Made by a program: the position numbers and the translations under genes. From positions 8,868,001 to 8,932,000 of the forward strand of contig CM075990.1 in assembly GCA_038087875.1 (NCBI GenBank): a stretch of 64,000 nt of DNA. The letters are read 5' to 3'. Numbering within the stretch: the first letter of the stretch is position 1; each line of letters opens with the position of its first letter. This DNA is from Malacoraja senta (Eukaryota). Of this stretch, positions 460-62,427 are shown in pieces. Below the pieces are notes generated by a model. That model did no database searches. It was not told the origin of the DNA and worked only from the letters and a program-made list of their open reading frames with translations.

Positions 460-1410
460 AAACGAGGAACTGCAGGTGCTGGTTTACAAAAGAAGATACA
501 GAGTCCTGGATTAACACAGTGGATCAGGCTGCATCTCTGGTACAGTGAAATTTGAGTTACCATAAAGCCATATGAATAAAAAGAACACAATACACAATAG
601 AATTTAACATAAACATCCACCACACAGCACCAACAACTGTGATGGAAGGCAACAAAATTCAGTAATCTTCCTCTTTGTTCACCCGTGGTCGGGGCCTAAA
701 ACCATCCACAGTCGCCACTACGGACGGCCCAATGTACAGGCCCTCTTGCCGGGATGATCGAAACTCCGGCGTCGGAACGGATCGGAACACACTCAGCGGC
801 TTGGAGTTTCTGAACCGGACGCTTCTTACCGGAGACCGCGGCTTCCGAAGTCCACAGGCCGAGCTGGGCGGAGCTCCAACACTGGCGATCCTCGGCAAAA
901 GATCCTAGGCCTCCACGATGTTAAAGTCAGTTCTGCGCCCGTGGCTAGAAGCTCCGCAGACCACAGCTCCACGGTGTTAATGTCAGCAGGCCCCGCTGGA
1001 CCGAGTTCCAACACTGGCGATCCTCGACAGGATCCCAGGCTCCGCGATGGTAATTCAGCGCTACGCCTGCTGCTGAAGCTCTGGGCCGGTCTCCGGTAGG
1101 AAAGGCCGCACCAATCCAGTTGGTAGGCCTCGAGGGGGGGAAAGGAGCGACATGGAGAAAAGACGCATCTCCGTCCAGGTAAGTGACTGAAAAACGTTTT
1201 CCCCCTATTCCCCCCCACCACCCCCCCCCCCCCACATAAGACATACTGAGAAACATTAAAACATACAATTAGATGCACTAAAAATAACAAAAAAGGCGAA
1301 AGGACAGACGAGCTGTTGGCGAGGCAGGCACGGCAATGGCGCCACCAGATGGATGAACATCCATAGGCGTTGTTTCGGGTCGAGACCCTTCTTCAGACTG
1401 ATTGTAGGGG
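460..1410 (-). mobile_element. Penelope-like pLTR fragment with hammerhead-like motif, split by a GC-rich insertion (halves ~460-540 and ~1353-1410)
   Basis: ggaactgcaggtgctggtttacaaaag...gcatctctgg resumes as gaacatccataggcgttgtttcgggtcgagacccttcttcagactg. This matches the tail attached to the GIY-YIG fragments at 45.2 kb and 58.6-59.2 kb. Confidence 0.75.
539..1352 (-). mobile_element. GC-rich non-autonomous retroelement with Rex1/Babar-like 3' tail
   Basis: Minus-strand 3' end aaatttcactgtacc resembles the Rex1-type tails at ~5040 and ~25485. Internal ~55-bp imperfect repeat (875-930 vs 1007-1058). Related element at 31647-32460. No credible ORF. Confidence 0.6.
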
Positions 1411-3569: not shown

Positions 3570-3684
3570 ATACTTACCTGGCAGGGAAGATTTGGTGGTC
3601 ACGATGGCCAATATCCCAGGATGAAGCTATCCCAATGCACTTTAGTTGTGCTGGATGTCATGATGTACCCAAATGTGGGATACT
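3570..3684 (+). pseudogene. RNU1: Diverged, 3'-truncated U1 snRNA copy
   Basis: atacttacctggcaggg...tcacga...cccagg...aatgcact...gtgctg...cccaaatgtggga is colinear with the first ~115 nt of U1. The Sm site and stem-loop IV are absent. Confidence 0.85.
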
Positions 3685-3960
3685 AGAGATACAGCATGAA
3701 AACAGGCCGTTCGGCCCACCGAGTCCGTGCCGACCAGCAATCCACATACACTAGGTACAATTTACTATTTACAGTAGCCAATTAACCTACAAACCTGTAC
3801 GTCTTTGGAGTGTGGGTGGAAACCAGAGCACCCGGAGAAAACCCACATGGTCACGGGGAGAACGTATAAACTCTATACAGACAGCACCCATAGTCAGGAT
3901 CAATCCACGGTTTGTGGTGCTGGAAGGCAGCAACTCTACCGCTGTGCCACTGTGCCACCC
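3685..3960 (-). mobile_element. V-SINE (HE1-like)
   Basis: Reverse complement of the SINE consensus (head gggtggcacagtggcacagcggtagagttgctgcc). Confidence 0.85.
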
Positions 3961-9067: not shown

Positions 9068-12000
9068 CTACAATTGTGTTGCACCATATGCTTCCAAAAA
9101 ATCAACAAATGGAGACCAACTCATTAAGAATTGGTCTGATTTATCTATTAGGAGGAATCGCATTTCCTCAAGATGTGCGGTGTCCAACATATTTGAAATC
9201 CACATTTTCAGCGTTGGTATGGGTGTATTTTTCCAAAATTTAAGTATATGTTTTTTTGCTATTATTAAACCATTATTAAAAAATAAATGTTGAGATGAGT
9301 TCAATTTATTCCCATCTTCCATTACTCCAAATATAATCATTTCAGTATTAGGTTCCATTTTTATCTTGAATAATTTTGTAAATATTTCAAAAATATCACT
9401 CCAGAATTTATAAAGTTTTATGCAGGAAACAAAAGATGGGGGAGGTATTTGGATAGAATTTATTCAATCTAGTTTTTGAATAATATAATCTATGTAAAAT
9501 TTTAAATTGAATTAAATTATGTCTTACATTAATCGAACATTTGTGTATATATATCAAATACTTTTCCCATGTTTCCTTCGTGATTTTTTATCAATAATTC
9601 CCGTTCCCACTCTTCTCTAAGTGCCTCTGTCGATGGTAGGTCTATATTAAAAAAACTATTATATAAATATGATATTAATTTCTGTGAGTCAGCCTTAATA
9701 TTCGTTGCTTCTTCCAGTGGATCTAAAGTTATGTTTTGATATCTTTGTATGTATTTCTTCATGAAGTCGCAGATCTGAAGATATTTAAAATATTGGTTAT
9801 TTTTCAGTTTAAATTTTAATTGTAATTGTTGGAATGATAACAGATTTCCCATTTCATACATATCACCGATCCTTTTAATTCCCATTTTTTCCCATTGATT
9901 ATATGTTTTATCAATAAGAGACGGTTTAAATGAAGGATTATTCACTATTGGCATTAACAATGATAGGTTTCTTAATTTTAAAGATAATTTTATTTGTTTC
10001 CAAATTCTTATTGTATCGTGTATAATTGGGTTATTCTTATATATTGTGTTGTTCAGTTTTATCGGGGAGAAGAGGATCGCTCCTATGTTACAAGGAGAAC
10101 AATCCTCTTTCTCCATTCTTATCCATTCTGTCTGTTGGGTAGAACTATCCAACCAGTAAATTATATTCTTAATATGCACTGCCCAATAGTAATACAACAA
10201 GTTCGGAAGTGAAAGTCCCCCGACATCTTTTGGTTTACACAAGTGTTTTCTTTGAATTCTGTGTGATCTATAGTCCCAAATAAAATTGGTAATATTAGAG
10301 TCTAGTTTAAAAAAAAAGATTTTTGGTATATATAATGGTATAGATTGAAATAGGTATAATATTTGTGGTAAAAAGATCATTTCTATAGCGTTTATTCTGC
10401 CTATTAATGATAACGGAAGTGTTTTCCAGAATTTAATCAACGCGTTGAGTTTATTTAATAAAGGCATAAAATTAGCATTAAATAATGCTTTGTATTTTCT
10501 AGTAATTTGAATACCCAAATACTTAATTTTTTCTGTTGCAATTTTAAAGGGGAATTTTAACAGGTATGTAGATTCTTGAGGTTTTAACGTCATGATTTCA
10601 CTTTTATTCCAATTTATTCTATATCCAGAAAAAGAGCCGAATTCCTCTATTAAATTTAATAAGTTTGGTATGCTCATTTGTGAATTTGTAATGTATAAAA
10701 GTATATCGTCTGCATATAATGAAATTTTATTATTTGAGTCCCTAGTATTATATCCCTGAATATTCGGATGAATTCTTATACTTTCAGCCAGGGGCTCTAT
10801 CATAAGGGCAAATAGCAGAGGTGATAAAGCACATCCCTGCCTATTCTATTGCCCCTCGATAATTGAAATTTTGGAGATAACATATTATTGGTTAATATTC
10901 TTGCCGTCGCTTTATCATATAATAATTTTACCCATACAATAAAATTCTCTCCTATAATACATTTTTGCAGTACTTTATATAAATACTGCCAATCTACCTG
11001 ATCAAATGCTTTCTCTGCGTCCAGAGAAACAATTGATATATCTTGTTAAAGAAGGAACTGCAGATGCTGGAAAATCGAAGGTACACAAAAATGCTGGAGA
11101 AACTCAGCGGGTGCAGCAGCATCTATGGAGCGAAGGAAACAGGCAACGTTTCGGGCCGAAACCCTTCTTCAGATATATCTTCTTCCTCCGTTTTATGTGA
11201 GTACATTATATTAAACAGGCGTCTCAAATTATTAAATGAATGTCTTTTGGGTATAAACCCCGTTTGATCAGGATTTATCAATTTACTAATGTATTTACTC
11301 AATCTTCTTGCTAAGGTCTTTGCTAAAATTTTCTGATCTGTATTTAAAAGTGATATAGCTCTATATGAACCCGGTTCATCTAAATCTTTATCTTGTTTTG
11401 GTATAAGCGTAATATTTTTAATATTTTTTTGGTATTCAGCTAATGTTTCTGGTAGTTTATTTTCTTTAAAGGCGTGAGTATATAAATTAAGTAAGCGTGG
11501 AGCCGTTATCTCGTGAAATCTTTTATAAAATTCGTTACTAAAACCATCTGGTCCAGGCGTCTTACCATTTTTCAACGATTTTATTGTTTCACCTATTTCT
11601 TCAAGTGTAATCTGAGCTCCTAATTCCTCTTGTTCCGAAAGGTCAAGTTTTGGAAGATTACAGTTATCTAAAAAAATTATAATTTTACTATCTTCTATTT
11701 TAGTTTTAGATGTAAACAAATTTTGATAAAATTGAGCAAATCTATTGTTAATATTCTTAGGTAATGTTAGTAATTCACCTTTCTCTGATTTAATTTTTGT
11801 GATAGTATTTTCCTTTTCTTGTTTTTTCAATTGACGAGCTAAGAGTTTATGTGGCTTGTCACCAAATTCGAAATGTTCCTGTTTTGTAATTTGGAATAAT
11901 CTTATTACTCTTGCCGATAAAATTCGATTAAGTTTAAATTTCAATAGTATTATCTTATTATGTTTATCTGTAGTTGGATCTTTGGCATTATCTAACTCTA

Positions 12001-15740: not shown

Positions 15741-16506
15741 TGGAGATATAACTGTGCAGAGAACAATTCTGGGGATATGACACTATGCAGCATAAGAGGT
15801 GGATATCATACTGTAGATACAAGGATCTGCATTTGCTGGTTTACAAAAGAAGATGCAAACTATTGGAATAACCCAGTGGGTCAGGCACACCTCTGAAGAA
15901 CAGACTGAAGAAGGGCCCCGACCTGAAATGTCACCTATCCGTGTTCTCCAGAGATGCTGCGTGTCCCGTTTTGTTATTTCAGCACTTTGTGTCTTTTTTA
16001 GATCACACAATGTTCTGGCACGCAGTGATGGGACATTACAATGTGCTGCTACATAGTGATTAGGCTGTTGAATGTGCTGCCTCCACAGTGATTGTGATAT
16101 TACCGTATTCTGACACAAACTAATGGAGATATTTCAGTGTGCAGACACATAGCTGTGGAGAGGAGGCAGGGCGGGTGGAATACAACTGTGAGCAGCCATG
16201 ACAATAGACATATGAAGGCAGATATTGTAAATCTCCTGAGCCTGGTCAAATATATCCATGGACACTGTGGAAAGCCAGGGAAGAAATTGCAGGAGCCCTA
16301 CCTGAGAGATATGAATCATTGTTAGACACGTGATGTCCAGAAGACTGGAGGGTGGCTAATGATGAGTTTATTTCAGAAGAGCTGCAAAAAATACATTTGT
16401 GAGCTATAGACTAGTGAGCCTAATATATGTGGTAGAAAGTTACTGGAGAGGTTTCTGAGGGATAAGATACACATCCATTTGGACATGCAGGAGTTGATTC
16501 GGGATA

Positions 16507-19774: not shown

Positions 19775-19812
19775 TGTTCGGTCCGTCAGTCCCAGTTGCA
19801 GTAGAGGTACTT

Positions 19813-20382
19813 TTAGACTCTACAAATTAATAAGTTCATATGGTTATGACATGGGTGGCTTTCCCTTGTTACGGGATGAACCAGTAAATCTGGTCTATGC
19901 CAGATGGTGATGCATGGTTCTAATACCATGTTGAGTATCACAGGGAACCATGGTTGAGTAGGCCAATCGGGTACTACCAAAATACCAGACGCAGAGTCTT
20001 GCTGTATTTTCCGTAATATCCGACTGATGAGGCAGAAAGGAGGGAATGCATAAATAAACAATTTCCCCCAATGCAGCGAAAATGCATCTGTCGCCGCTGC
20101 CCCAGGGTCTGGTTCCCATGAAACATAATTTGATAACTGGTGATTAAGCCTGGATGCGAATAGATCGATATCTGGTGTTCCATACCATGCTGTAATATCA
20201 GCAAATACTTTTTTATCCAACATCCATTCGGTGTTTTCATTAAATTTGCGTGACCTGGTGTCTGCCACTGAATTTAGTTTACTTGGTAGGTAAGTGGCTG
20301 ATATCCAAATATTTTTCTGGATACACCATTGCCAAATTGTGTTGGCCAGATTGTCACATGATGTCGATTTGTTTCCACCCAT
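19813..20382 (-). pseudogene. DIRS RNaseH end plus Dam-like DNA adenine methyltransferase domain
   Basis: NSVADTRSR, IDLFASRLN, YAFPPF and VPDWPTQPWFP. Frameshifted from the upstream RT/RNaseH frame. Confidence 0.85.
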
Positions 20383-22330
20383 GTGATTGTTTCCACGGTG
20401 GTATTGTCAATCTAACATGCTGGTGATATAACCCAGAACAATATGACTTTAGGCCATGGAATGCACCCAACATTTCCAGGTAGTTTATGCCCAGTGTTTG
20501 TAACAATGACGCCTCTTGTGCATTCCATCTACCTCCACAGCTGGAGATGGAATTGGTAGCACCCCAACCAAGTGCACTGGCATCAGTTTGCAGCACCATA
20601 GAAGGGTTGCTGATAACGATTGGATTGGAACAATGCCGACTGTTATCTGTCCACCATTTCAGTTCAATTATGGCTTCGATTGGTAGCTTCATTGGTCTGT
20701 CAAAATGACCAGCATTAACTTTGAGTGCTCGTATTTTTGCCCTCTGTAAATTTTGATAATGTAAAGGTCCAAATTGTGTGGCTGGAAAGGCAGCCACTAT
20801 TTTGCCAATTATTCTTGCTACCAATCTGATGGATGGTTTACTGATGTCAATGAGGTTATTGCAAGCCTCTTTTAAGGCTATAGCCTTTTCTTTAGGCAAA
20901 GTCACCGACATGTGAACTGAGTTAATGGTGAACCCCAAATAATCCATTGTGGTGGAAGGGTTTAATTTAGATTTAACTGGATGGATGATAAACCCCAGTT
21001 TTTCAAATAATAGTTTTGTGGCTGTTACCATTTCTTTGGCCAAGTCCAAAGCTTTGCCCACAATAAGTATGTCATCTAGTTATGCCATCACCATGTGTTT
21101 TTGCTTCCGCAGAAACGATAGGGCTGGTTTCAAAATTTTAGTGAACAGCCTGGGGGCTGATGTTAGCCCATTTGGTAGTGCTCTGTACTGCCAGAGCTGT
21201 CCCATCCAGTTGAATTTTAAATAACATCTGTGGTCACCTCGTATAGGCACTGAATAGTAAGCATCTTTTAAATCGATGCTAGCCATGAAGTAACCTTTGG
21301 AAATCAATTGTTTAGCAGTAACAAAGGTTTCCATTTTGAAATGAATATATTGTACAAAAATATTCAAATTTGTCAAATCTATGATGATGCGACAACCAAC
21401 ATCTTTTTTGTTTTTGGTAAAGATATTGGACACAAATTCGAGCGATTCGTGTTTTTTTTTTCAATTACCCCTTTTGCGTAAAGGCTCTGTCTCACGGTGT
21501 TGCGGTCATCGGCGGTGAAGCGCGGCGTCGCCGGTAGAGGGGACCGCACGGCAACGGCGAGAGCGCCGAGCCTATGCCACGGGAGAACCGCACGGATGCT
21601 GCGCGGGGGCCGAGTGATTTAAGTACGGCTGGTCCCACGAGCTTGCGGTAAGTAAAAAAAAAGGGCGGGCCGACTGCGATGACGTCATTTCGGATCTGCG
21701 GGGCTGTGGCGGCGGCAGTGCTGATCGCGGCGCTGTGGCGGCGGCTGTGGCGGCGGCCGTGCTGATCGCGGCGCTGTGGCGGCGGCCGTGCCGCACACGT
21801 GCCTCACTGGCGGAGGCTGTGGCGGTGAAGGTTCTACTCACGGCGCTCGTGCCACACTGGCGGCGGCTGTGGCGGCGACCGTGCCGCACTCGTGCATCAC
21901 TGGCGACGGCTGTGCGGTAGGAAAATATTTTTGAACAGTGTTGGTTTTATTTTAGCACCGTGCGGTGTTGGGAACAACGCCGCACGGCCACGGAATTGTG
22001 CGTTTGACCGAGTGCGCGGTCTATGGCGGCCCAGGAGCGGTGGATTCTTCCTGTTTCACCGCCAATGACCGCAGACTCGTGAGACAGGCCTTTTAAGCCG
22101 CTCCAGTTCAGCATGTGCGTCTGATTTTTCTTTACCTGAAAGTACGAACATTCGGTTCGATACATGCTGAACTGGAGGGCTATGTTTGTGTATAAAATCT
22201 ATGGTATATCCCTGGATACTGCTTAAAATATAAGTGTCTGTAGTTAACATACTCCATGCATCCAGAAAGAAGTGTAATCTCCCACCAACCTCCATACTCC
22301 CTGCAATTCGTAAGGAACCAGACCCACCTA
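20354..22330 (-). pseudogene. DIRS reverse transcriptase/RNaseH, inactivated
   Basis: VGGRLHFF, IDLKDAYYSVPI and LPNGLTSAPRLFTK. The YLDD motif reads *LDD (TAA at ~21080). QTDASALGWG and INYLEM follow. Split by the MITE at 21482-22092. Confidence 0.92.
21482..22092. mobile_element. PIF/Harbinger-type MITE inserted in DIRS pol
   Basis: ~38-bp imperfect TIRs aggctctgtctcacggtgttgcggtcatcggcggtgaa and ttcaccgccaatgaccgcagactcgtgagacaggcctt, flanked by TAA and TTA. Removing it restores ELERLYAKGVIE. Confidence 0.8.
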
Positions 22331-23614
22331 CCTCCATAGTTACCAGTGGCAGGTTTACTTCTTTTTGTGAATCCTTCGTGGAGGTTGAGGCACCGGTGTC
22401 TGGGTTTGTGGTTGGATTGGCGTTGGGGTTTGCGCATCTTCCACGAAGGCCGGTCTGGGCCATGGCCTAAAAAAGACTGATGTGCGGTGTACCTGGCCTT
22501 TGAGCTTTCACCAGTTTGTCTTGTTGTACTGGTGGGTGCATAAGGGTGCTGTTTATGACTATAGTAGGTTTTTGATGATGCCGCTTTGATGAGCCCCAGG
22601 GTTTTTGCCTCCTCATCGAGCTCTTTGACTTGTTTGGATAGGTCACCTCCAAATAGTAAAATTGGTGGTTTTATATTTCCAGGTTTGCACAGACCTGCAA
22701 ATTTCGGGTTTAAAGCAGGTCGGATGGCACTCTTCCTGATGATGTTTAGTATTACAGAGCAGTGCCAGTGCATCCTGTTGATCCTGCGACATCTCCTTTT
22801 CATCTACTGTGCGGGCGAAAGCTGTTATTCCCGTTGTTAGGAGCTTCAGTACTTTTTGGAGTTTGACATCCATGCCTCTAACTCCTGCTCTGACGTGTTT
22901 CCATATGCAATTATTCACAATAGGAACATTCAGGGATGTACAGTTCCCTGGTGGCAAATGTCTTGCCGTGGTGTCCATTACAGCCTGTTCCTGTGGCTGC
23001 TTAAATGACATATAGTCAATACTGGCAGCTAGTTTCGGTTCCAGGTTTCGGCCAGTTTGGTCTGGCTGTATGAATTGGGACACCATGTCCAGTAGATTTT
23101 GGTCTTCCTGCACCCCTCGCACACTTGATGTTTGTTCTGCAAACCCCTCTTCAGAGTCAGCCCAGAATTGACCCCCAGTACTCTCCTCTGACGAGGGAGA
23201 TGCACTGTGCAGACCTACAAGAGGTGCTGCTGTAGGTGTAATATATTGCCCACAGTGACTTGACTCCATCTCCCGGAGCCTGCCACGTTGGAGCATTTGC
23301 TCCATAAGCCGCTCCATCCGGCTCCAGCGTTCATGGTCGCTGGCCGCTCGCGGCTGCTCAAAGTCGGACTCATCCGAGTCAAATACTCTATTAGACTTTT
23401 GTATTGCCTTACCGCCCGGCCGCGGTCTAGATTTGGCCAGTGCGGGGCCGAAGTCGGGCACAGCTGTTCCCATTACGGGTGATTCATGTGCCGCTGGCCG
23501 CTGCTGGCTGCCCGTAACTCCGCGGTCCTCCCTCGCCAGCTTTGTAGCAGCCTTCTTAGTTTTCCTTGTCTTGTCCATTGACTCCACACCTGCAACACAG
23601 TATGGAGAGAACAA
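22180..23614 (-). pseudogene. DIRS ORF1 (gag-like), frameshifted
   Basis: Lies upstream of pol. PGNCTSLNVPIVNNCIW, DVKLQKV, RPALNPKFAGLC and LLFGGDL are typical of DIRS ORF1. Confidence 0.8.
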
Positions 23615-24629
23615 AAAGAACGCAGAGTATCTCTTACCTGCAGTTCCCGGCTCTTAAATTTGCCGCTGAGGGGGAACATCGTTCCACCCGTGTGACTGTT
23701 TCGCAAATCGTGTAGCGATATGACACGCATGCGTCCTGGCGGGGTTCTTCACGTAGTCACTCACGTGACTCCGAAGTAAAATCATAATGGGCATAGATAA
23801 AGTGATTGCACAGAGGGTTACCCCCCCAAGCTATGGGAATCAAGAACTAGAGGGCATAGGTTTAAGGTGAGGGAGAAAGGATTTAAAAGGAACCTGCGGA
23901 TCAACTTTTACACAGATAGGGTGGTACGTATATAGAATGAACTGCTGGAGGAGGTAATTGAGCAGGTACTTTAGCAATATTTAAAAGACATTTGGACAAG
24001 TTATTGGCCAAACGTGGGCAAGTGGGACTATTTCAGATGGGGCATCGGCTGGCATGGACGAGTTGGGGCAGTTGTGCTGTATGACTATGATTCTGACATT
24101 AATGGCGATATTACAGTCTGCTGACACAATAGTGATGGTGGCGTTATACTGTATTGAAACAAAGGCGTATAATATTACTGTGCGCTGACACAGTAACAGT
24201 GTGATGCCACAATAGTAATGGGGATGTTGCCGTCTGGTGTCATACGAGTCATGGATACATGGGGTGTAATGGGGACATCTGCAATGTATAATGATACAGG
24301 TGATGAGATATTACAATATGCTGCAACAATAGCAATGAGGATATTGCAAGTATTTCCACCACAGCAGAAAATATAACTGTCCTGATTACAGTGAAGATAA
24401 TATTACAGTGCTCTGTAACAACAGTGATGGGGATATGACAGTGTGTGGACACAAATGTGCTGCAATCATGGCAGTGTGCAAGGATACATTGCAGAGATTG
24501 CAACGTACTGACACAAGAGTGATGTGGATGTCACACTGTGCTGAATAATGCTGTACTGTGGATAATATAGTATAAATGATGGTTAATTCACATTTTGCTG
24601 GCAATGTGATGCAATGGATTGTTACACGA

Positions 24630-40315: not shown

Positions 40316-40528
40316 ACTGTAGGAAGGAACTGCAGATGCTGGTTTAAACCGAAGATAGACACAAAAAGTTGGAGTAACTCAGCGGGACAGGCAGCATCTC
40401 TGGAGAGAAGGAATGGGTGACATTTTGGATCATGACTGTCTGAAGAAGGGTCACGACCCGAAACGTCACCCATTCCTTCTCTCCAGAGATGCTGCCTGTC
40501 CCGCTGAGTTACTCCAGCTTTTTGTGTC
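40316..40528. mobile_element. Penelope-derived fold-back insertion with hammerhead-like motif
   Basis: ~65-bp inverted arms; ctgaagaagggtcacgacccgaaacgtc at 40440-40467; TSD tccctttgatt. Confidence 0.85.
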
Positions 40529-43500
40529 TCCCTTTGATTTCTAAAGCTGGCTGAGGATGAAGCGAGGCGAATCATGGCAAACCCTGCATTTTTCATGAGT
40601 AGAGCATCAGTATCAACAAACTGCATTTAACATCCAAAACATCTCAAGTAATTCAGGAGGGGGTGAGATTGGAATAAACCTGAGCCACACAAAGAGATCT
40701 TAGGACAAGAGCGCAGAAGCTCAGTTAAATAGGATAGGTTTTAAGGAGGATCTGTACGTTTTTTTTTTGCTTTTAAAGATACAGATTGGAAACATGTAAT
40801 TTGGCCCACCAAGTCCGCACCGACCAATGATCACCTATACACTAGTTCTATCCTACACACTGGGGACAATTTACAGAGGCCAATTAACCGAAAACAAGCA
40901 CATCTTTGGAATGTGGGAGGAAACTGGAGCACCTAGAGGAAACTCACGCAGTCACGGGGAGAATGTGCAAACTCCCCACAGTTAGCACCCCAGGTCAGGA
41001 TTGAACCCTTCTTCAGACTGGGTCCAAAGAGGGGTCTCAAACTGTAATGTCACCCATTCCTTCTATCCAGAGATGCTGCTTGTCCCTCTAAGTTACTCCA
41101 GCATGTTGTGTCTATCGTCGGTGTAAACCAGCATCTGCAGTTCCTTCCTACACAGGACAAAGAAAGCAACGGGTTAATGGGTGCAAGGTGAAAGAGGATA
41201 GTAATATGAAATAGGATTATGCTAACATCGTCCCCCTTTCTCCCATTCCTTTGTATACATAAAATGTAATGCCTGCCCATTTACTTCCACCTGTCTGGCT
41301 GCCGAGGGTCCCAATTTCTCCTTCTACAGGAAGCAGCAGTTTGCGGTATCCATTGCTCACATTATGAGTATTATGTACTTTGTGGAGCCAAACTATAGAT
41401 TGGGTTGCACTTTGTAGAATGCTCCTGTACACACTGCAAGCATTTAAAACATCTGTGCCACCCCTGAGTTTCCAGCCACCTGTCACTTTAACCTGAAGAT
41501 AGACACAAAAAGCTGGAGTAGCTCAGCGGAACAGACCTGATCTCTCTGCTCCCAGCCTAAACTATGAGGGGAATATGAGGGGATTGGATGGGGTGAATGT
41601 GCAATTTTTTACCCAGGGTATGAAAATTATGAACCAAAGGACATGTTTAAGATGAGAAGGGGAAGATTAAATAGGAACTTGAGGGGCAACGTTTCACTCT
41701 GAGGGTGGTGGGTTTATGGAACGAGCTGCAAGAGGGGGATTCAAGGAAATGCAGATGATGGTTTACAAAAAGACACAGAGTGCTGGAGTAACTCAATAGG
41801 TTAGGCTGCATCTCTGGAGAACATGGATAGATGATCAGTCTGAAGAAGCATCCTGATCTACAATGTCACCTAGCCATGCTTTGCAGCAATGCTGCCTGAT
41901 CCGCTGAATTACTCCAGCACTTTCCAGAATTGATTCCATATTTGTCGGCAATTTCAGTCAGTTATCACTCCTGCCCTCCATCCAATTACGAAACTCCATT
42001 GTGTTCCTTTCCCCCAACCCACCCCCTGTCCTTTTACTGCATCTTAATAGATCTTTTTGTCAATCATGTTTCTCACCCCACAGATGCTGCCTGACCTGTG
42101 GTTTATTTCTGGTTCTGATTCAGTGTAAATATTTCCTGCAGAGACTGAGCATTAAACAAAGCAGAGCAACAATCCCAGGCCACACAGAGGTCACGAAGAT
42201 TGAATATTCCCTGTCTAATTAATACTCTGCTGATGGATATGAATGATTGAGAATCATTCTGTGCAGCAGTTTTGGAAATGCATGATTGCAAGTGTCATCT
42301 GTGATTAATTTATATGCAAATAGTCTTGCGCTTTGAATTTAGAAAAAAAATCAATTTCACTTAACCTGTGACAGTACTGTATTTGATGAATGTGGGTCCA
42401 ATGGCAGACACAGGAACATTCTTTGGGTAATAATCTTGGACTGGCAACCCAGAAACTTGTGTTCAAATCAAGGCAGCTGTGGAATTTAAATTCAGTTAAT
42501 GATCTAAAATTGACCCCGAAAAAGTTAGTCATTGGTAACAATGACCACAAATTTTCCAGATTGTTGTCAATCCAGTTCATTATGCTCTGCAGATGAGGAA
42601 AACCATCATCTTTCTGACTCCAGACTCACTGCTGAAATTGCCTAGTACACCATTCGCTTGGTATGTTGAAACAAAGAATAAATAAAAGTGGACAGATCAC
42701 CTGGTGTTGAAAAAGGCAGTGCAGACCCACACAAAGTCACTACAAGCATAATTGTGATCTATGCTCTATGCTACAGCCTTCTCATATGGTTTCCCAGGCC
42801 ATCTTGTTCCACAGATCAATCAAGGATATAGCCTGAGATGATTGTCATAGAATAGTATTGTACAGTTAAAATGCCTGAATCCTCAATTATACTCCTCTGT
42901 TCTCCCTGTACCAAAGCAGAAGAGATGACCAAAAGGTGTGAGATGGTGTATGGTTGGGATTTATCAAATTTGAATCCAGATCCCATGAAGTCACTTGGTA
43001 TCAAGCCAAACATGGGCCAGTAAAACCGTGTTCTGATTGCAAATGACTATTCTCCCTCAACTGATGAATCAGTACTCCTCCAAATTGAGCACACTGCCAG
43101 ATCAGGTCTACAGAAAGTAAAGAATTATTCAATATGAGGGATATACCAACCTGGCCTCAATCTTCACTAATGTACAGTACCTATGGTAAATGCATCTGTC
43201 CATGAAAGCATTTTTAGGAAGGACCACACCACATTCCAGCGGGAGAAAAGTACTGTCATCACGCCAAAGATGTGTTGTGTAACATGACAATGATGTAACT
43301 TGGATGGGTGGTTCAAACTGGGTGTTTGACTAAAAGGTTAATTCTGTTCCTCTATCCACAGATGCTGCCTGACCTGCTGAGTGTGTCCACTATTCTCTAC
43401 TTTTGTTTCAGCTAAAACTAGCCCCTCACCAATAACCAGCATTCAAAACCAAGAACATTGCAATTATTTTAATTCAGTAAACGATTCCAAAGACATTAAT

Positions 43501-45194
43501 AGGTCGTTATATTTCCATGGATTTTCATTTTAAGCAAAGCTGTAGTTAGATGAGATACAGATTTATTTTTGTTGGTTTGCATGCATTAACATCCATCAAC
43601 CATTGCTTAAACGCAAGCTTAGGTATTTTTTTAGGATGAAAGAAATTAAATTGTTATTTGAGAGACATATGTATAATTTGAGACCATCCAATAACTATTT
43701 TCATCTTAACCCAAATGATCACATCATCAGATAATTCTTGCAAGGCATTATAAAAAACATTTAATCAAAACACACACTCATAGCAATCACATACATAGTT
43801 AACTAACAAAAAGACATACAATTTTAAATCAACTTAAGTAATTCAGTGGGATTCAAAATGTTGCCGGTTTTGGGGAGAACATTTTTGATGGCAAGGGAAT
43901 TATTACATACTTGGAAAGGAAAGATTTTCCATGTTGTGGGGAAGCGTGGGATGAATTGGAGGGGACTTTTATAGAGCCGGTACCAGCACAATGGGCAGAA
44001 TGACCTTCTCCTGGATTGTGAGACTTGACATCTCCATCCGTGAGCTTTCCAGAGGAGACATGATTCTCCATAAACTGGCCACTGACTTACCATGAGATTC
44101 TACTCCTTTTGGAAGGATTCCCTCCATCCACCCGAAAGCGGAGGCAGAGTGGCACAGCAGTAGAGTTGCTGCCTTACAGCACTAGAGACCCAGGTTCAAT
44201 CCTGACTACGGGTGCTGTCTGTATGGAGTTTGTACATTCTCCCTCCGCTGCATGTGTTTTCTCTAGTTTTCTGTGAGAGGAGAGACAGTTAACTTTTCAG
44301 ATCAAAGAAGTTCATAACGAATAGGTGTAAAATTAGGCAATTCAGCTCATCAAGTCTACTCTGCCATTCAATCATGGCTGATCTATCTCTCCCTCCTAAC
44401 CCCGTTCTCCTGTCTTCTCCACATAATCTCTGACACCTGTATGATGTTTCAGTTATGTTGAAAAGACTTCGACAGAAAGTGTTAATGACAATGATCCATG
44501 CTACATTTTCCTTGACCTTCATCCCCTTAGATGTCTAGTTCTCACCTTACAATTCCTTATCTCTGTGTCTCCCTCTCCCCTGACTCTCACTGAAGAAAGG
44601 TCTCAGCCCGAAACGTCACCCATTCCTTCTATCCAGAGATGCTGCCTGTTCCGCTGAGTAACTCCAGCATTTTGTGTCTTTCTTTCCAACAATGTGGCCT
44701 GAGCTGTGGAATGGTTCCAGCATTTTACCTTATTATTTCAGATATCCAGCATCTGCCATTTCCTTGTGATTTTCGCCAGCTAGTGAACTCAATGTAGTCT
44801 CATTGTCTCATAGTACAAGGAGCCAAGTGATATCTGCAGACGTGAGGCAACAACTGCCCACCTGCCCGATGGAGAACTAGTGCCAGGCAGAAACATCACA
44901 ACCTGGTGAATGACCCACCTGCCAACTACCAGCAAAGTGAATTACAAAACCCAACCTCCTCAATTGTCCACATCTGGCAGCCTAGGCAAGAGGTCTCCAC
45001 ATCCTCCTGTGTATTGTCACAGTTTACTATCAGCATCAAAACAATAGTCTTAACTGTGCTCAGCAAATTTCACCGGTTAGAGATACATCATAAAAGGTAA
45101 TTAGGTGATGGCAATAGAACATAGATTATAGTACAGTACAGGAACAGACCCTTCAGTCTAGAATATCTGTGCTGAAAATGATGCCAAATTAAAC

Positions 45195-45782
45195 TACCCC
45201 TCCCCCCTCGACTCCATTCAAGGACCTAAGCAGTCGTTCCAGGTGCGACAGAGGTTCACCTGCATCTCCTCCAACCTCATCTATTGCATCCGCTGCTCTA
45301 GATGCCAGCTGATCTACATCGGTGAGACCAAGCGGAGGCTTGGCGATCGTTTCGCCGAACACCTCCGGTCGGTCTGCAATAACCAACCTGACCTCCCGGT
45401 GGCTCAGCACTTCAACTCCCCTTCCCATTCCGTATCTGACCTCTCTGTCCTGGGTCTCCTCCATGGCCACAGCGAGCAACACCGGAAATTGGAGGAAATG
45501 CACCTCATATTCCGCTTGGGCAGTCTACATCCTGGGGGCATGAACATTGAATTCTCCCAATTCTGCTAGCCCTTGCTGTCCCCTCCCCTTCATCAGCCCT
45601 CTGGTTGTCTCCTCCCCTCCCCCAGCCCTCGGGCTCCTCCTCCGCCTTTTTTCCTTTTTTCCTTTCTTCTCCCCACCCCCTATCAGTCTGAAGAAGGGTT
45701 TCGACCCGAAACGTTACCTATTTCCTTCGCTCCATAGATGCTGCTGCACCCGCTGAGTTTCTCCAGCATTTTTGTGTCCCTT
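45195..45782 (+). mobile_element. Penelope-like element 3' part: GIY-YIG endonuclease (45243-45569) plus pLTR with hammerhead-like motif
   Basis: FTCISSNLIYCIRCSRCQLIYIGETKRRLGDRFAEHL...PGGMN, followed by ctgaagaagggtttcgacccgaaacgtt at 45688-45715. Confidence 0.92.
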
Positions 45783-46016
45783 CTGCCAAATATCTGGCCA
45801 AATATCCATATCTGTCCTTCCCTGCATATCCCAAAACCTCATAAACGTCACTATCACACCAACATCCACCAACATTAAAGCAGTGTGTTCCAGGCACAAA
45901 AATTAAGTTCAAAGTATTTTATACACTTTTAAGCTTCATTCTGTCAGTGGAGAATCCTTTAACGCTGTTAATTAAATTGCGTATTTGTTATTAAATCACA
46001 GCAATCTCACATGCCT

Positions 46017-46244
46017 GTTTAAGAAGGAACTGCAGATGCTGGAAAATCGAAGGTAGACAAAAATGCTGGAGAAACTCAGCAGGTGAGGCAGCATCTATGG
46101 AGCGAAGGAAATAGGCAACGTTTCGGGCCGAAACCGCTTCGTCCAAAAGTCAGCCCGAAGAAGGGTTTTGGCCCGAAACGTTGCCTATTTCCTTAACTCC
46201 ATAGATGCTGCCTCACCCACTGAGTTTCTCCAGCATTTTTTTCT
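46017..46244. mobile_element. Penelope-derived fold-back insertion
   Basis: Inverted arms; 14-bp TSD aatctcacatgcct (46003-46016 and 46245-46258). Confidence 0.85.
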
Positions 46245-47770: not shown

Positions 47771-48057
47771 TTGCTCAACCCACTGTTAATTCAAGTGGAA
47801 CACTAGCATCCAGTAGATAGACACAAAATGCTGGAGTAACTCAGCGGGACAGGCAGCATCTCTGGATAGAAGGAAGAAGGGTCTCGACCCAAAACGTGCT
47901 GAAGAAGGGTCTCGACCCATTCCTTCTCTCCAGAGATGCTGCCTGTCCCGCTGGGTTACTCCAGCATTTTGTGTCTATCTTCAGTTTAAACCAGCATCTG
48001 CAGTTCCTTCCTATACACTAGCGTCCAGTAGCTGTGATATCATATCATAATTTATAT
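47771..48057 (+). repeat. 287-bp direct repeat, copy 1 (contains a Penelope fold-back)
   Basis: Identical by eye to 50767-51053. Confidence 0.95.
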
Positions 48058-50766
48058 ATATATATATTTTTTTAAATTTTTATTTATTAGAAGTACATTA
48101 CATTACAACTACATACATTAATACTCGTCATTTATATCATCTTACAATTAATGTACTCCCTTTATTTATTTTTTTACACTAGAGAAAGAAAAGATTGAAA
48201 GAGAGAAGAAAGTGAAGGAAAAAGTGCAAGTGTAGAAAAGTGTAGAAAATGTAACAACAAAAAAGGACGAAGACCCTATAAGAGCGAAATTAAAAACAAA
48301 AAGAAAAAGAGTTAAGAAATAGGCCCTAAGAAAAGAAAAGAGAAAGAGAAAAAAAGAGAAACAAATGTTTTTTTTTTTTGAGCATCACGTAAATAGGACA
48401 TACCAACTCTTCAACTATCATCCCCCCTTACCCGACCTCAATTTTTTTTTTTTTTTAAAGTACTTTTGCACCCCATGTTTGTAATAATTCTATAAATGCA
48501 GACCACGTCAGGTGGAAGTGATCTGGTTTACCTGCTAGGAGGAGTCTTATCTCTTCAAGGTGTAATGTTTCAAACATATTTGAAATCCACATATTTATAG
48601 TTGGTATTGGAGCCTTCTTCCAAAATTTTAGAATTAGCTTTTTTCCAGTTATTAACCCATAATCCATTAATTTCTTTTGAAACACATTTAATTCTGGATC
48701 ATCTTCCGTTATTCCGAAGATAATCCATTCTGCTTTGGGTATCAGTCTTGTTTTAAATAACTTTGTAAAGATTTCAAAAATTTCATTCCAAAATTTTTGA
48801 ATTTTTGTACAGAAGACAAATGCGTGCGCTATAGTTGCTTCTTGGGATTGACATTTATCACAAATAGATGATACGTTTGGGAAAATTTTATGAATTTTAG
48901 TTTTCGAATAATATAATCTATGTAAAATTTTAAATTGTATTAAAGTGTGTCTTACATTAATCGAGCATTTATGCACTTTTAATAAGTATTCATTCCAACT
49001 TTCCTTTGAAATTTTAATAGCTAACTCTTGTTCCCAGTCTCTTCTGATACCCTCCGTAGATGGTATTTGTGCATTTAAGATAATATTGTACAAATATGAT
49101 ATTAAGTTTGCTGATTCCGCTTTTATCTGCATTGCCTCGTCCAGTACATCTGCTGGGTTATTATGATGATCTTTTATATATTTTTTCAAATAGTCGCATA
49201 TTTGAAAGTATTTAAAATATTGATTATTTCCGAGTTTATATTTTATTTGTAATTGTTGAAATGAAAGTAATTTTCCAGTTTCATACAAGTCACCAAGCGT
49301 TTTAATTCCTAGTCTATCCCATTGTGTATAAGCTTTATCTATAATAGAAGGACTAAACGAAGGGTTATTGACTATAGGTAATAAAAGTGATAAGTTTCTT
49401 AATTTTAAATTTTGTTTTATTTGTTTCCAAATACGGATTGTACTATGAATAATTGGGTTCTTATTATAGTTTATGTTATTCAATTTCATTGGAGAGAGGA
49501 GGATCGCTCCAATGTTTCTAGAGGAGCAATCCTCTTTCTCCATTACAATCCAGTCTACTTGCTGGGCGGAGTTATCCATCAGTTGAATCATGTTTTTAAT
49601 ATTTACTGACCAATAATAATACATAAAATTAGGTAGTGCTAGACCCCCCAATACTTTAGATTTATTCAGATGGGTTTTTTGTATTCTATGTGATTTATAG
49701 TCCCATATAAAATTAGTGATATCTGAGTCGAGTTTTTTAAAAAACTTCTTAGGTAAGTATATAGGAATTGATTGAAATAGGTATAAAATTTGTGGTAAAA
49801 ATATCATTTTTATTGCGTTTATTCGGCCTATTAAAGACATCGGAAGCGTTTTCCAGAATTTAATTAATGTATTCAGTTTATTAAGTAGGGGGTCAAAATT
49901 TGCCCTGAACATACCTTGATATGCTCTGGTAATTTCGATTCCCAAATATTTAAATTTTTCTGTAGCTATTTTAAAAGGGAATTTTAAAAGATGTGTTGAA
50001 TCTTTCGGTTTTATTGACATAATTTCACTTTTATTCCAATTTATTCTATATCCAGAAAAAGATCCGAAGTCTTCAATTAAATTTAATATATTTGGTATAG
50101 TGATTTGAGGTTTTGTAATATACAATAATATATCATCCGCGTATAAAGATATTTTATTATATGAGTCTTTAGTATTATATCCATGAATATCAGGGTGTAT
50201 TCTAATTTTTTCTGCTAGCGGTTCAATAATGAGAGCAAACAGCTGTGGTGATAATGAGCATCCTTGTCTATTTCCCCTTGATAGTTGAAATTTCGAGGAT
50301 AATATGTTATTAGTAAGTATTCTAGCTGTAGGTTTGTTATATAGTAACTTAATCCATAAAATAAAATTCTCTCCCAGTTGAAATTTTTGTAATACTTTAT
50401 CCATATAATTCCATTCTACTTGATCAAATGCTTTTTCAGCATCCAGCGAAATAATTGATAATTCTTGATCTTCAGATTTGTGTGAGTGCATTATGTTGAG
50501 TAGACGTCTCATATTATTAGAAGAGTATCTCTTAGGGATAAACCCTGTCTGATCTGGGTTTATTAATTTACTAATGTATTTACTTAATCTTCTGGCTAAT
50601 GTTTTCGCTAATATTTTTTGATCTGTGTTTAACAATGCTATAGCTCTATATGAGCCAGGTTCTTCTAAATCCTTATTTTTCTTAGGTATTAATGTAATCG
50701 TTGATTCCGCTAATGTATCAGGTAGTATTCGTTTTTTAAAAGCGTATTGGTACATTTTTTGTAATC
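48058..50766 (-). mobile_element. Young 5'-truncated L1
   Basis: Uninterrupted ORF2 fragment, 3'UTR and A-rich tail. Confidence 0.95.
48455..50755 (-). CDS. L1 ORF2p RT plus C-terminal CCHC, 766 aa open but lacking the endonuclease domain
   Basis: SLDAEKAFD, RQGCSLSP, LYADD, KYLG and CDKC...HAFVFC. Confidence 0.9.
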   Translation of the reverse strand: MYQYAFKKRILPDTLAESTITLIPKKNKDLEEPGSYRAIALLNTDQKILAKTLARRLSKYISKLINPDQTGFIPKRYSSNNMRRLLNIMHSHKSEDQELSIISLDAEKAFDQVEWNYMDKVLQKFQLGENFILWIKLLYNKPTARILTNNILSSKFQLSRGNRQGCSLSPQLFALIIEPLAEKIRIHPDIHGYNTKDSYNKISLYADDILLYITKPQITIPNILNLIEDFGSFSGYRINWNKSEIMSIKPKDSTHLLKFPFKIATEKFKYLGIEITRAYQGMFRANFDPLLNKLNTLIKFWKTLPMSLIGRINAIKMIFLPQILYLFQSIPIYLPKKFFKKLDSDITNFIWDYKSHRIQKTHLNKSKVLGGLALPNFMYYYWSVNIKNMIQLMDNSAQQVDWIVMEKEDCSSRNIGAILLSPMKLNNINYNKNPIIHSTIRIWKQIKQNLKLRNLSLLLPIVNNPSFSPSIIDKAYTQWDRLGIKTLGDLYETGKLLSFQQLQIKYKLGNNQYFKYFQICDYLKKYIKDHHNNPADVLDEAMQIKAESANLISYLYNIILNAQIPSTEGIRRDWEQELAIKISKESWNEYLLKVHKCSINVRHTLIQFKILHRLYYSKTKIHKIFPNVSSICDKCQSQEATIAHAFVFCTKIQKFWNEIFEIFTKLFKTRLIPKAEWIIFGITEDDPELNVFQKKLMDYGLITGKKLILKFWKKAPIPTINMWISNMFETLHLEEIRLLLAGKPDHFHLTWSAFIELLQTWGAKVL

Positions 50767-51053
50767 TTGCTCAACCCACTGTTAATTCAAGTGGAACACT
50801 AGCATCCAGTAGATAGACACAAAATGCTGGAGTAACTCAGCGGGACAGGCAGCATCTCTGGATAGAAGGAAGAAGGGTCTCGACCCAAAACGTGCTGAAG
50901 AAGGGTCTCGACCCATTCCTTCTCTCCAGAGATGCTGCCTGTCCCGCTGGGTTACTCCAGCATTTTGTGTCTATCTTCAGTTTAAACCAGCATCTGCAGT
51001 TCCTTCCTATACACTAGCGTCCAGTAGCTGTGATATCATATCATAATTTATAT
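50767..51053 (+). repeat. 287-bp direct repeat, copy 2
   Basis: Identical by eye to 47771-48057. Confidence 0.95.
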
Positions 51054-54985: not shown

Positions 54986-57035
54986 GCTACATAAAGCTGA
55001 GAAATCAGGTACAAAGTGTATTCATCTGCTCCACTCCACCGCACTCCAGACTTACACTGCCTTCCAGTCTGGTGTTTCCCCACAGAATCTCCCGACACAT
55101 TGCTGACGATTTATTCTGGCCCATTATCAACCACTGCGTGGACACACGATAGCACAATTCACCGCAGTGCATATTACAATTAATAAAGTGCTGTCTCTGG
55201 CCTTTCAGAGGCCCCAGAAGTCATGATGAGATTCAGGACAGGAATGTTCTTCACTTCAATTAGAGGAATTTCTTTTGCGATGTTTGTAATAATGCAAGTG
55301 GTGTAAGGTTGACATTGATGATTTAATTTTCTAAATTTAGGCTCCTGGATGACAGTTCCTCCTTGGATACAGGCTGCCAGGGAAACCTACAAAATCTGTG
55401 CAAAGTCAACTGGCTCATTCCAAATTGCAAAATCTTTTCCTTTCATCTGTAAATCAGGATTTTTCTCTGGTTTTATCAGTATCAATTTACCGGGCAAAAT
55501 ATGAATTCAGATGCACATTCAGGAGCACTCACAGAGATTGTGAATCCAAAGGTCGACAAAAATGCTGGAGAAACTCAGTGGGCGAGGCAGCATCTATGGA
55601 GAGAAGGAATAGGCGACGCTTCGGGTCGAGACCCTTCTTCAGAATCCAAAGATCAAAGTCTTAGGACCGTAATCTAAAGTCAAGATAATGAGCCCAAGGC
55701 ATATTTTGCAGATGAGCTGAGAAACAACTTTTTTTTTTAATTTGGGATTGGTTTGGGAACAAGATCACAGGTGATGCAGCACCTCATGTTTGTAACGATT
55801 GCTGGTTTAGGACCTTAATAGAGAGCTTTCAGCAGCCCCACTCTGAAGAAGGGACAATAACAGGTGATGCAGTCGAGTCCAGACATGATAATGATGTATG
55901 GAACGCCATCAACTGTAAATGACCAGAGGCAAGACTAGAACTGTGAACCTTGACAAAGTAGAGAAGAGGCAATTAAGCGAAGGTGCAGATATGGATTTAT
56001 AAATCACGCCAAGGTCAAATATTAGAACGCAAGCAAATCAAGTTGTCAGTCTTGCACATGCTCATTGTGAGGCTTCTTTCCTGTTGAATATATATTCCGT
56101 GACGTTCGCTGTTCAGTCTACAAATAAATAGCGGATTTCTTCTTTCAAAAGCTGGACAAAACTCTTATTGATAGGCTCCCAACCTAGAACGAAGCTTGCA
56201 AAAATGCTATTTCATAGGCAATCTATCAACAAACTCTGCAGCAAAAGGCTGAGGCACTTATACACCTAAGGACTGCGTCTCTCAGCCCTGAATAATATTT
56301 AACTCCTGTTACAGTGGGCGGTGTGATTATTAAAGACAGCCTGCGTTTTCCTGCTGACACTGTAAGTGAATCACATCAGTCAACACCGCACTTTTCTCCC
56401 CCACAAATCTCACTCCAGACTGGTTTAATGATTCATAATCATGGACATTATGTTAAAAAAAAAAAATCACTGACAAAATTAATGATGCCTTTTGGGATTT
56501 TTGCCATCTATACGACCGAGTGACATTGAACGCAGAGATTAATCCAGAACCATCCTATTACCCAGAGTGAGAAAATTAACCAGCTTTTGTTTTCTGTGCC
56601 CGTAAGCAATTTCACAGCAAGGAGGGTGACAAGATCAGGGCAGGGCTTGAGATATCGTCACATAAAGACAACTGCAGCTTATTATATGCAGCACATACAT
56701 CACGGTGAGTTACTTTTACTCAGCAAGTGATTTATTCCCTTCAGTAAATGGTTCACAAGTTGCTATTTTTCCATCCCAGTTGTTACATCAGTTTCTGTGA
56801 GTTTTTGGCTCTGAAAATAATCGGGAGAGCAGCAGAGAAATGAGGTGGCAAACCACCCAAGCATATGACCTCTACACTATGGAGAAGAGCAAGGGCATCA
56901 TTGTACGCATGTCCATGTGTTCCCCTGCAAGTCGCTCCTGTGTATCAGCAGTTATATCAGCAGTCCCTCATCGCCACTGGGTCTAAATCCAGCACATTGC
57001 CACCCAGCACTACAGTAAACATTATGCATTAAAGT

Positions 57036-58555: not shown

Positions 58556-59375
58556 TGGAGGAAGGAACTACAGATGCTGGTTCAAACTGAAGATAGACAC
58601 AAAAAGCTGGAGTAACTCAGCGGGACAGGCAATATCTCTGGAGAGAAAGAATGGGTGACGTTTCGGGTCGAGACCGTTCTTCAGACTAGTTAGGGAAAAG
58701 GGTAACGAGAGATATGAACAATGATGTAGAGAGATAAAGAACAATGAAAGAAAGATATTCAAAAAATAACAATGATAAAGGAAACAGGCCATTGTTAGCT
58801 GTTTGTTGGGTGAAAACGAGAAGCTGGTGCGACTTGCTGGGGTTACTTGAAGTTAGAGAAGTTAATATTCATACCACTGGGCTGTAAGCTGTCCAAACGA
58901 AATATGAGATGCTGTTCCTCCAATTGGCATGTAGCCTCACTCTGACAATGGAAGAGATCTAGGACAGAAAGGTCAGTGTAGGAATGGGAAAGAGAATTAA
59001 AGTGTTTAACAACTGGGAGATCAGGTAGGTCTAGGCGGGCTTAGCGAAGGTGTTCAGCGAAACGATCGCTCAGTCTACGCTTGGTCTTGCCAATGCATAA
59101 GAGTCCACACCCTGAACAACAGATACAGTCAATGAGGTTGGAGGAGGGGCAAGTAAACCTCTGCCTAACCTGAAAGGACTGTCGGAGTCCCTGGACAACA
59201 TCTCTGGAGATAATGAATGGGTGACGTTTCAGGTCGAGACCTTTCCTCAGACCCTTCTTCAGAGCCGAAACGTCACCCATTTCTTCACTCCAGAGATGCT
59301 GCCTGTACCGCTGAGTCACTCCAGCTTTATGTGTCAATCTTCGGTTTAAACCAGCATCTGCAGCTCCTTCCTACA
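58556..59375 (-). mobile_element. Penelope-like element with GIY-YIG remnant and inverted pLTRs
   Basis: RQRFTCPSSNLIDCICCSGCGLLCIGKTKRRLSDRFAEHLR; inverted terminal copies; hammerhead-like motif at ~58657-58685 on the minus strand. Confidence 0.88.
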
Positions 59376-61463: not shown

Positions 61464-61555
61464 CTGAAGAAGGGTCTCGACCCGAAACATCACCCATTCC
61501 TTCCACCCTGTGATGCTGCCTGTTCCGCTGAGTTACTCCAGCATTTTGTGTCTAT
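61464..61555 (+). mobile_element. Penelope pLTR fragment with hammerhead-like motif
   Basis: ctgaagaagggtctcgacccgaaacatc; TSD cttccacctga (61457-61467 and 61556-61566). Confidence 0.85.
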
Positions 61556-62427
61556 CTTCCACCTGAGTTGTTGGTTTGGCAGGTACTTAGAAAACCTCCA
61601 GCTGATTATCAGCAACAACAGAACTCCATTCAATGTCCAATGCAGTTTCAAACACTAAAACTTCTTCAGATACCGTTATTGTTAATGGGAAGGTCACATT
61701 CTCTGGCAGTAGCATTTTTTCCACCATTTATCATCCATTGTTTGATATCTTCCACAGCTTTCGGCCTTTCAATCTTTGCTTCCAAAATGAATGCTTCTCA
61801 CCACCTGCGTCAACAGTGTCACAAACTCAATGGGGCATGTAGCAGCACTAATCAATACTGTGCCATTAGCAGTGTGACACAAACACCTCTCTCATTCATC
61901 TGCCCGCTACCTGGGCTATAAAAGAAATCCGCTTCACCATTCCGGAAGGACAAATCGAAATTATTTGACGTCTCCATCGTAGACCAATATCACGGTCATC
62001 TCATTAATACTTTCATTCTCAGTTAGCCTTTTACTATTCCTGGAAGAAATTAACAAAGTAGATTACTTTCAATAATGTTATTTATGAAAAAAAATAATGC
62101 AAATCCCATAAGCTCTGTGCAATCAACTAACATCACTCCCAAACCTGATGTGGTTTAGTGCATAAAACTCCATTCTCATTATCACAACTCTCTACCTCGT
62201 GTCACAATACGATGTTCTCTATTGTATAAATCTCCCAAGCCTATCCATCAGGAGGCAAGTTTGTATTTGAGAGACACGCATACATGCATGTAAGAAATTA
62301 ATCTCTTCTCAAAAAATGTTAGCCCTGACCAAAGAGCATTCTCTCGGTAAAATTCCAATGCAAACATATCCACCTCTGAAACACCAAGCCATAATCTCAC
62401 ATAGACAACAGCCACTTTATATGATGT

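Follow-up and report, generated by a model that had tools for sequence, protein, structure and literature searches.

A minimal hammerhead motif of a very high-copy Penelope-like element in Malacoraja senta and the short insertions that carry it

Introduction

A hammerhead motif recurs throughout the 64,000-nucleotide stretch of Malacoraja senta DNA analysed here (assembly GCA_038087875.1, contig CM075990.1, forward-strand positions 8,868,001 to 8,932,000; hereafter the window). We conclude that it is probably the minimal hammerhead of a Penelope-like element (PLE), likely weak and in need of both a partner and protein, that its copies are likely mostly inert, and that the templates of its short copies were uncleaved.

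Minimal hammerheads of metazoan PLEs were described by Cervera & De la Pena (2014; PMC4209133), whose account lists the consensus CUGANGAH-helix II-GAAAN-palindrome-NUH, a conserved additional nucleotide that separates position 9 from 10.1, and a helix I usually of 3-5 bp, with 2 bp for Culex, D. virilis and Oikopleura. According to the same account, the single minimal motif showed no cleavage and dimers showed low cleavage. Craig et al., in a study of endonuclease-bearing PLEs (10.1101/2021.04.23.441226), call the hammerhead's role in these elements unclear. [quoted passage not shown] The annotation also took the extra A and the very short stem I as marks of an elasmobranch variant; this has to be given up, as both features already appear in PMC4209133.

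Results

Anatomy and abundance of the motif

Positions are numbered from C3 of the hammerhead core as +1 (45688 in the window), -1 being the preceding base; cleavage is predicted between +28 and +29. At 45688..45715 (+), a minimal type I hammerhead motif passes our structural descriptor and matches the consensus given in PMC4209133. It comprises, in order, CUGAAGA, an extra A (45695), a 4-bp stem II of GGGU/ACCC (45696-45699/45704-45707) with a UUCG loop, GAAA (45708-45711), CG and U-U (45714-45715). Helix III is the palindrome ACGU, H17 is U, helix I has 2 bp (gu/ac), and cleavage is predicted between 45715 and 45716. Two further ideas were rejected: UUCG as a stable tetraloop, since a U-A or U-G pair closes the loop and the predicted partner of UUUCG is instead CGAAA, and a second cleavage at NUC before AGU, for which on inspection the helix I and helix III pairings do not fit.

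The motif lies where it had been annotated and exceeds chance: the pattern CTGANGAN{10,25}GAAAC has nine matches in the window against 0.69 expected, and none of 100 shuffles reaches nine, although the match at 61645 is unrelated sequence. A fuzzy search gave 17 copies, recovering every site annotated earlier, intact or decayed, except 34103, which appears in a search with the 3' half; the downstream-arm profile alone gave 30 arms. CUGANGA, GAAA and NUH in order, with a helix II of at least 3 bp, occur at 45688 and four other window sites. Five window copies are descriptor-positive: 11146 (-), 40440 (+), 45688 (+), 15905 (+) and 59250 (-). The first three belong to the eight sites that had been called intact or nearly so; the other five of those eight fail the descriptor.

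In the 1.94-Gb genome the exact 27-nt form occurs 42,567 times, and its reversed control not once. Across 120 regularly spaced 10-kb stretches of the large contigs (1.2 Mb), the arm profile found 476 arms and the descriptor 62 motifs, against 0-2 in shuffles; all 62 appear to be one superfamily. Simple extrapolation gives about 770,000 arms and about 100,000 descriptor-positive motifs in the genome, a density of about 50 such motifs per Mb. The Rfam check that the annotation had proposed, run on the window, returned no hammerhead family among eight matches, even at E <= 10; this null does not bear on the PLE type, because minimal hammerheads are not modelled in Rfam.

Among the copies, the extra nucleotide between 9 and 10.1 is A in 136/145, and the 10.1-11.1 pair is G-C in 103/139 and G-U in 26/139. 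Positions 15.2-16.2 are CG in 53 of the 62 descriptor matches, where the descriptor itself demands a pair, and CG is the majority there in all four subfamilies. Helix I has 2 bp in 38/62 descriptor matches and 3-4 bp in six, the additional pairs coming from junction or flank sequence; the third helix I pair is A-C in 127/144 copies.

The carrier element

Full-length units carry the motif in both pLTRs (at 753 and 4822 in locus L101, and at 715 and 4749 in L106). The L101 unit, of 4.07 kb, has a 968-amino-acid frame with a reverse transcriptase (RT), a zinc-finger linker and GIY-YIG, the Pfam matches to RVT_1 (E = 6.5e-6) and GIY-YIG (E = 0.0012) both falling below the cut-offs; the frame also carries the DKG motif and a CX4CX2C linker (CNRKRCNTC). 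A CX2-5CxxC finger between RT and EN is described as marking Neptune and Nematis (10.1101/2021.04.23.441226). Judged by these sequence motifs, and not by a tree, the carrier is a Neptune-type PLE. Intact relatives at three loci have their main-frame start beyond the tail, at about +164. A 41-codon upstream frame runs from +51 (L101 802-925 and relatives) and overlaps the main ATG out of frame in the seven loci examined; an intron after it was considered and dropped as unnecessary, given the position of that ATG.

Of the 464 arms, 277 are solo and 170 belong to head-to-head pairs; 13 are tandem, with another arm on the same strand no more than 160 bp away, and four lie at locus edges. Among loci of long copies with the N-terminal region, 22/30 run on upstream as partial tandems. 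The copies thus show known PLE anatomy.

Two tandem repeats were seen alongside. A 66-bp minisatellite derived from about +21 to +86 of the pLTR, without CUGAAGA and stem II, lies at L024 8523-8655, L029 1342, L149 4351-4483 and L131 3011. Locus L214 (G000:C1:3869900-3879800) is a tandem array of 2.0-2.45-kb units, each with one short pLTR insertion from +1, and a similar array lies at C1:4.00-4.03 Mb. A retrozyme reading of the L214 array was rejected, as its units carry a damaged passenger copy.

Copies in the window

The motif at 45688 belongs to a 5'-truncated Neptune-type PLE of the young subfamily A at 45199..45781 (+), which retains the C-terminal end of the endonuclease, the 3' UTR and the pLTR; over these 583 bp its identity with the 3' end of the L101 full-length unit is 97.9%. 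The open frame at 45162..45569 (+), which encodes the end of the GIY-YIG endonuclease from 45199 on, matches Pfam PF01541 with E = 1.7e-4 and 22.2 bits, slightly below the cut-off of 22.6, and has relatives of 96-99% identity among its best-scoring genome matches. A subfamily-specific pyrimidine-rich tract (45640..45682, +) precedes the shared TCAGT (45683..45687, +), which provides the 5' strand of helix I (gu) and is the likely start of a short RNA, with its A at 45685, where the 5' ends of short copies pile up. TCAGT is initiator-like and also resembles a 3' splice site; we infer the former. The downstream pLTR arm (45716..45781, +) ends at the first of the two 3' end sites (about +93) and has no tail.

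Three other copies are solo short insertions. That at 11044..11173 (-), 130 bp with the tail and starting at -1, lies inside an L1-type frame and has an intact core and a 10-bp target duplication; that at 55550..55643 (-), 94 bp and also starting at -1, has a damaged core (GAAG) and a 10-bp duplication; that at 61464..61556 (+) starts at +1 and has a broken ACGU palindrome and an 11-bp duplication. Head-to-head (fold-back) insertions are found at 40323..40540, where a long hairpin (MFE -166 kcal/mol, z -20.6) is predicted to enclose the intact core at 40440; at 46016..46240, with a tail on the left arm only and both cores damaged; at 47814..48019, with rearranged cores and an identical copy at 50810-51015; at 59200..59370, with a partly duplicated core, that at 59250 (-) having a chance 4-bp helix I; and at 15856..16000, an older insertion of subfamily D with its core at 15905. 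The copy annotated earlier at 44590 (+) is a subfamily B pLTR fragment (44557..44677, +) with a damaged stem II, the first pair being broken. The site given as 58657 (-) corresponds to a motif at 58684 in the pLTR of a longer 5'-truncated subfamily B element (58561..59193, -), in which G10.1 is changed and the first stem II pair broken, and the site at 1370 (-) is a core fragment with neither NUH nor downstream arm (1372..1402, -).

Several other features of the window were recorded. A 287-bp stretch containing a fold-back PLE copy is 100% identical at 47771-48057 and 50767-51053, flanking an L1-type RT frame (48455-50770, -); either insertion left an exceptionally long duplication or the assembly is at fault here. 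The fold-back copies at 46111-46190, 47846-47949 and 59202-59294 receive weak microRNA-precursor scores in Rfam, and such hairpins could supply small-RNA or editing pathways. A U1 snRNA-like pseudogene lies at 3570-3734 (+; 47 bits, below the Rfam gathering score). An element with tyrosine-recombinase (PF00589) and RT frames at about 18800-23700 (-) is presumably DIRS/Ngaro-like, to go by its architecture.

Ends of the short copies

The 5' ends were placed for 265 solo arms from the sampled loci, window arms being excluded and 42 of 506 arms without the anchor motif, together with four edge arms, having been dropped beforehand. Seventy ends fall at -3 to +1 and 85 at -5 to +1, against 55 at +2 to +27; around the predicted cut there are eight at +28 to +30, three of them at +29. 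Expressed as density, this is 17.5 ends per nt at -3 to +1 versus 1.7 per nt at +5 to +27. The fine spread (21, 21, 16 and 12 ends at -3, -2, -1 and +1, with five at -4) is better explained by a true end at -3, blurred by ragged loss, than by one at -1; the same estimator recovers ends planted at -3, -1 and +29. A weak post hoc excess at +28 to +31 (14 of the 81 ends between 5 and 45; p = 0.024), contributed mainly by old copies that begin at 30-31, allows for a minor class of cleaved templates. In the young subfamily, 36 solo copies were chosen by downstream sequence only, with five array copies and eight inverted arms excluded; 16 start at -6 to +8, one at -13 and 19 at -70 or further upstream, and none at 28-30. 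The peak is not due to missing subfamily references, because the flanks of the short copies are not pyrimidine-rich.

The 3' ends cluster at about +91-96 and about +128-132, two sites some 36 nt apart, in keeping with a tail that is optional; PMC11167929 shows a similar two-site pattern. Target duplications of at least 8 bp flank 26/120 short copies, against 1.2 in controls, so the short copies are genuine insertions. Their templates were uncleaved, because the copies include bases that lie upstream of the cut.

Only one of 23 long copies reaching the 5' pLTR (a set that includes duplicates) stops at -6 to +8, against 16/36 at the first pass (p = 0.0009). A start at -3 cannot be the main start of the long transcript, and a separate class of short RNA must therefore be assumed. 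Such a class, with a putative start at the A of TCAGT, is probably the simplest account. We take TCAGT to resemble a polymerase II initiator. An initiator-like TCACT is described in a rotifer pLTR (PMC3846280), and D. virilis Penelope is described as having an internal promoter with a downstream element (PMC2377424). A constant upstream exon spliced to CAG|U was rejected, there being no common flank among 121 short copies.

Conservation and folding of the core

Conservation was assessed in 145 copies, of four subfamilies, that reach -3 or further. Greater conservation of the core than of neighbouring pLTR bases, raised as a check by the first-pass annotation, is found across subfamily majorities, which differ at 0/13 core versus 16/61 downstream positions (one-sided Fisher p = 0.03), but not within subfamilies, where mismatches per site are 0.056 in the core and 0.071 in the flank (p = 0.16). 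The former result, drawn from four close subfamilies and this p value, suggests that the core has been selected in source lineages; inserted copies, in which the core behaves like the flank, appear to decay neutrally. Within -3 to +29 the subfamilies show five changes: at two bases of loop II, at H17 (C/U), and in two pairs that have gone from U-A to U-G. Loss of G12, which belongs to a CpG, affects 29% of copies (other CpGs 16-29%), and 58/145 copies retain H17 and every one of the 11 core bases. No alignment between subfamilies is possible upstream of TCAGT, on which at least six distinct upstream sequences converge.

A check of covariation across copies, also proposed at the outset, gave no two-sided covariation: stem I and II pairs show 0-2 two-sided changes each over 139-144 copies, the covariation score for 12 sequences is not above shuffles, and the compensatory changes between subfamilies, whose closeness leaves low power, are two one-sided U-A to U-G and none two-sided.

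Nearest-neighbour folding, in models that omit tertiary and protein contributions, predicts a stem II probability of about 0.01 or less for three natural copies and places the active dimer 11-17 kcal/mol above two monomers. Competing predicted folds would bury the core, by GUUUCG/CGAAAC pairing or by pairing of the core strand with the tail, and head-to-head copies are predicted to fold into long hairpins that would bury the motif. Among the 62 descriptor-positive motifs, 40 combine a 2-bp helix I with a Watson-Crick palindrome; of these 40, 13 sit in head-to-head hairpins, and the only same-strand pairs among them have spacings of 5.0 and 7.8 kb. The RNA from -3 to +133 (L101 750-885; z -2.18) is predicted to fold with its core strand GAAGAAGG paired to the tail. 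This fold would close the molecule and hide the core, and is possibly an off state that a tail-bound protein would open.

Discussion

The account that we favour runs as follows. The element protein would bind pLTR RNA, reverse transcription would begin internally at either tail site, as that of the anole PLE does in vitro, and copying of the uncleaved RNA would proceed in the direction of its 5' end. Read-through RNAs, long or in tandem, would yield the truncated and partial-tandem copies, and a short RNA from the A of TCAGT would yield run-off insertions of about 95 or 130 bp, solo or folded back. In source elements the core has likely been kept by selection for conditional cleavage; after insertion, it would decay neutrally. 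More tentatively, and with rather less confidence than in this account, we suggest that the short pLTR RNA starts at the front edge of the hammerhead and spreads in a SINE-like manner, with the hammerhead as a protein-gated off-switch. The protein would then make hundreds of thousands of 'strong-stop'-like run-off insertions of about 95 or 130 nt that carry their own internal promoter, and cut RNAs would almost never become insertions.

The main rival to a transcription start is that the pile of 5' ends marks RNA processing or 3' splicing at CAG|U, or a stop or nick that a specific sequence causes during integration. We regard this as doubtful, even though a pyrimidine tract and CAG directly precede the core in all subfamilies, the intron of D. 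virilis Penelope ends at the same place relative to helix I according to PMC4209133, the ends are ragged over -3 to +1, and long copies run past these positions without stopping. The flanks of the short copies are target DNA with adjoining duplications, and the 121 flanks share no upstream exon; the 5' end is independent of the 3' start used, which argues against a stall at fixed length; the spread favours -3 over -1; and a stall caused by the fold would be expected on the 3' side of the motif. Somewhat less probable still, and in our view unlikely, is that the motif no longer cleaves here, the stretch from TCAGT onward being kept for its function as internal promoter and as protein-binding module, and its resemblance to a hammerhead being inherited. 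The 2-bp helix I of all source-type copies would suit this, as would the predicted burial of the core by competing folds, the absence of two-sided covariation, a conservation that begins at TCAGT, upstream of the core, and the internal promoter described for D. virilis Penelope (PMC2377424). Yet all five subfamily changes in -3 to +29 lie at positions that hammerheads tolerate, a 2-bp helix I is listed for other PLE hammerheads (PMC4209133), and the anole PLE hammerhead is silent alone and active with protein (PMC11167929).

That the copies form a large set of working self-cleaving sites which cut host transcripts, as the first-pass annotation had envisaged, is very improbable. The numbers invite the idea (62 descriptor-positive motifs in 1.2 Mb, some 100,000 by extrapolation, and 42,567 exact copies), but the claim found weak support at best, most copies being damaged, lone or buried in hairpins. 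Wide cutting is unlikely because the core is kept in so few copies (58/145), the predicted fold is unfavourable, and, of the 40/62 strictly intact motifs, 13 lie in hairpins and same-strand partners are 5.0 and 7.8 kb apart. Neutral decay, moreover, implies neither retention nor purging; PMC4209133 reports no cleavage by single minimal hammerheads, and a 2026 preprint on retrozymes (10.64898/2026.07.22.740005) reports eight of nine Xenopus dimers without cleavage.

Nothing is new in the type of element, the motif (known since 2014) or the anatomy of the insertions, and the carrier family is a very high-copy addition to the known PLE hammerheads, ordinary apart from its scale. Our literature search found no description of such a family in cartilaginous fish or of the 5' ends of short copies; Repbase and some supplements may name such families. 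The 5' end positions provide a cheap and testable constraint, namely that the short-copy templates were uncut, and the young family, 96-99% identical with long open frames, is suited to testing it. If the tentative SINE-like reading were true, the genome would be an in-vivo record of uncleaved PLE templates and would counter a cleavage-and-circularization model for the short-copy class.

Comparison with known systems

As described in PMC4209133, the minimal hammerheads of metazoan PLEs share with the present motif the CUGANGAH core, the G10.1-C11.1 pair and the nucleotide before G10.1, as well as the loopless palindromic 15.2-16.2 and the location in the pLTR, and they likewise occur mostly as dispersed single copies with some opposite-strand pairs. 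The 4-bp helix II and 2-bp helix I found here stand at the short end of the range given there, and the 42,567 exact copies far exceed the roughly 4,000 of coelacanth and 9,000 of Xenopus. No row for shark, skate or Callorhinchus turned up in the searched part of its supplement; for one chondrichthyan, 10.64898/2026.07.22.740005 reports PLEs and tandem repeats that bear hammerheads, and there one of the nine Xenopus dimers does cleave. Neptune-clade PLEs, as described in 10.1101/2021.04.23.441226 and PMC3846280, have the same RT with DKG, CX4CX2C linker and C-terminal GIY-YIG, and the same partial tandems, inverted 5'-truncated copy, optional tail of 30-40 bp and target duplications. We found there no mention of the dominant class seen here, of about 95 or 130 bp, with 5' ends at the front edge of the hammerhead.

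The green anole Poseidon PLE (PAc; Frangieh et al., 2024; PMC11167929) has the same two 3' end sites bounding the tail. Its unprocessed RNA is the main substrate, its ribozyme is silent alone and cleaves only with protein, and its insertions too seem to derive from uncleaved RNA. The PAc frame begins at stem II, whereas here the main frame begins at about +164 and the +51 upstream frame is present. Non-LTR retrozymes (PMC7229834; 10.64898/2026.07.22.740005) are described as having the same type I hammerhead and an origin in PLE pLTRs, and are likewise non-autonomous and of very high copy number. They form head-to-tail arrays of 150-1000-bp units with a hammerhead in each, whereas the copies here are solo or head-to-head; no head-to-tail units with a complete hammerhead each were found, the only short tandem family, of 66 bp, lacking CUGAAGA. 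For axolotl, PMC7229834 gives 126,247 type I hammerheads in a far larger genome; against that figure the absolute number here is no record, but the density is higher.
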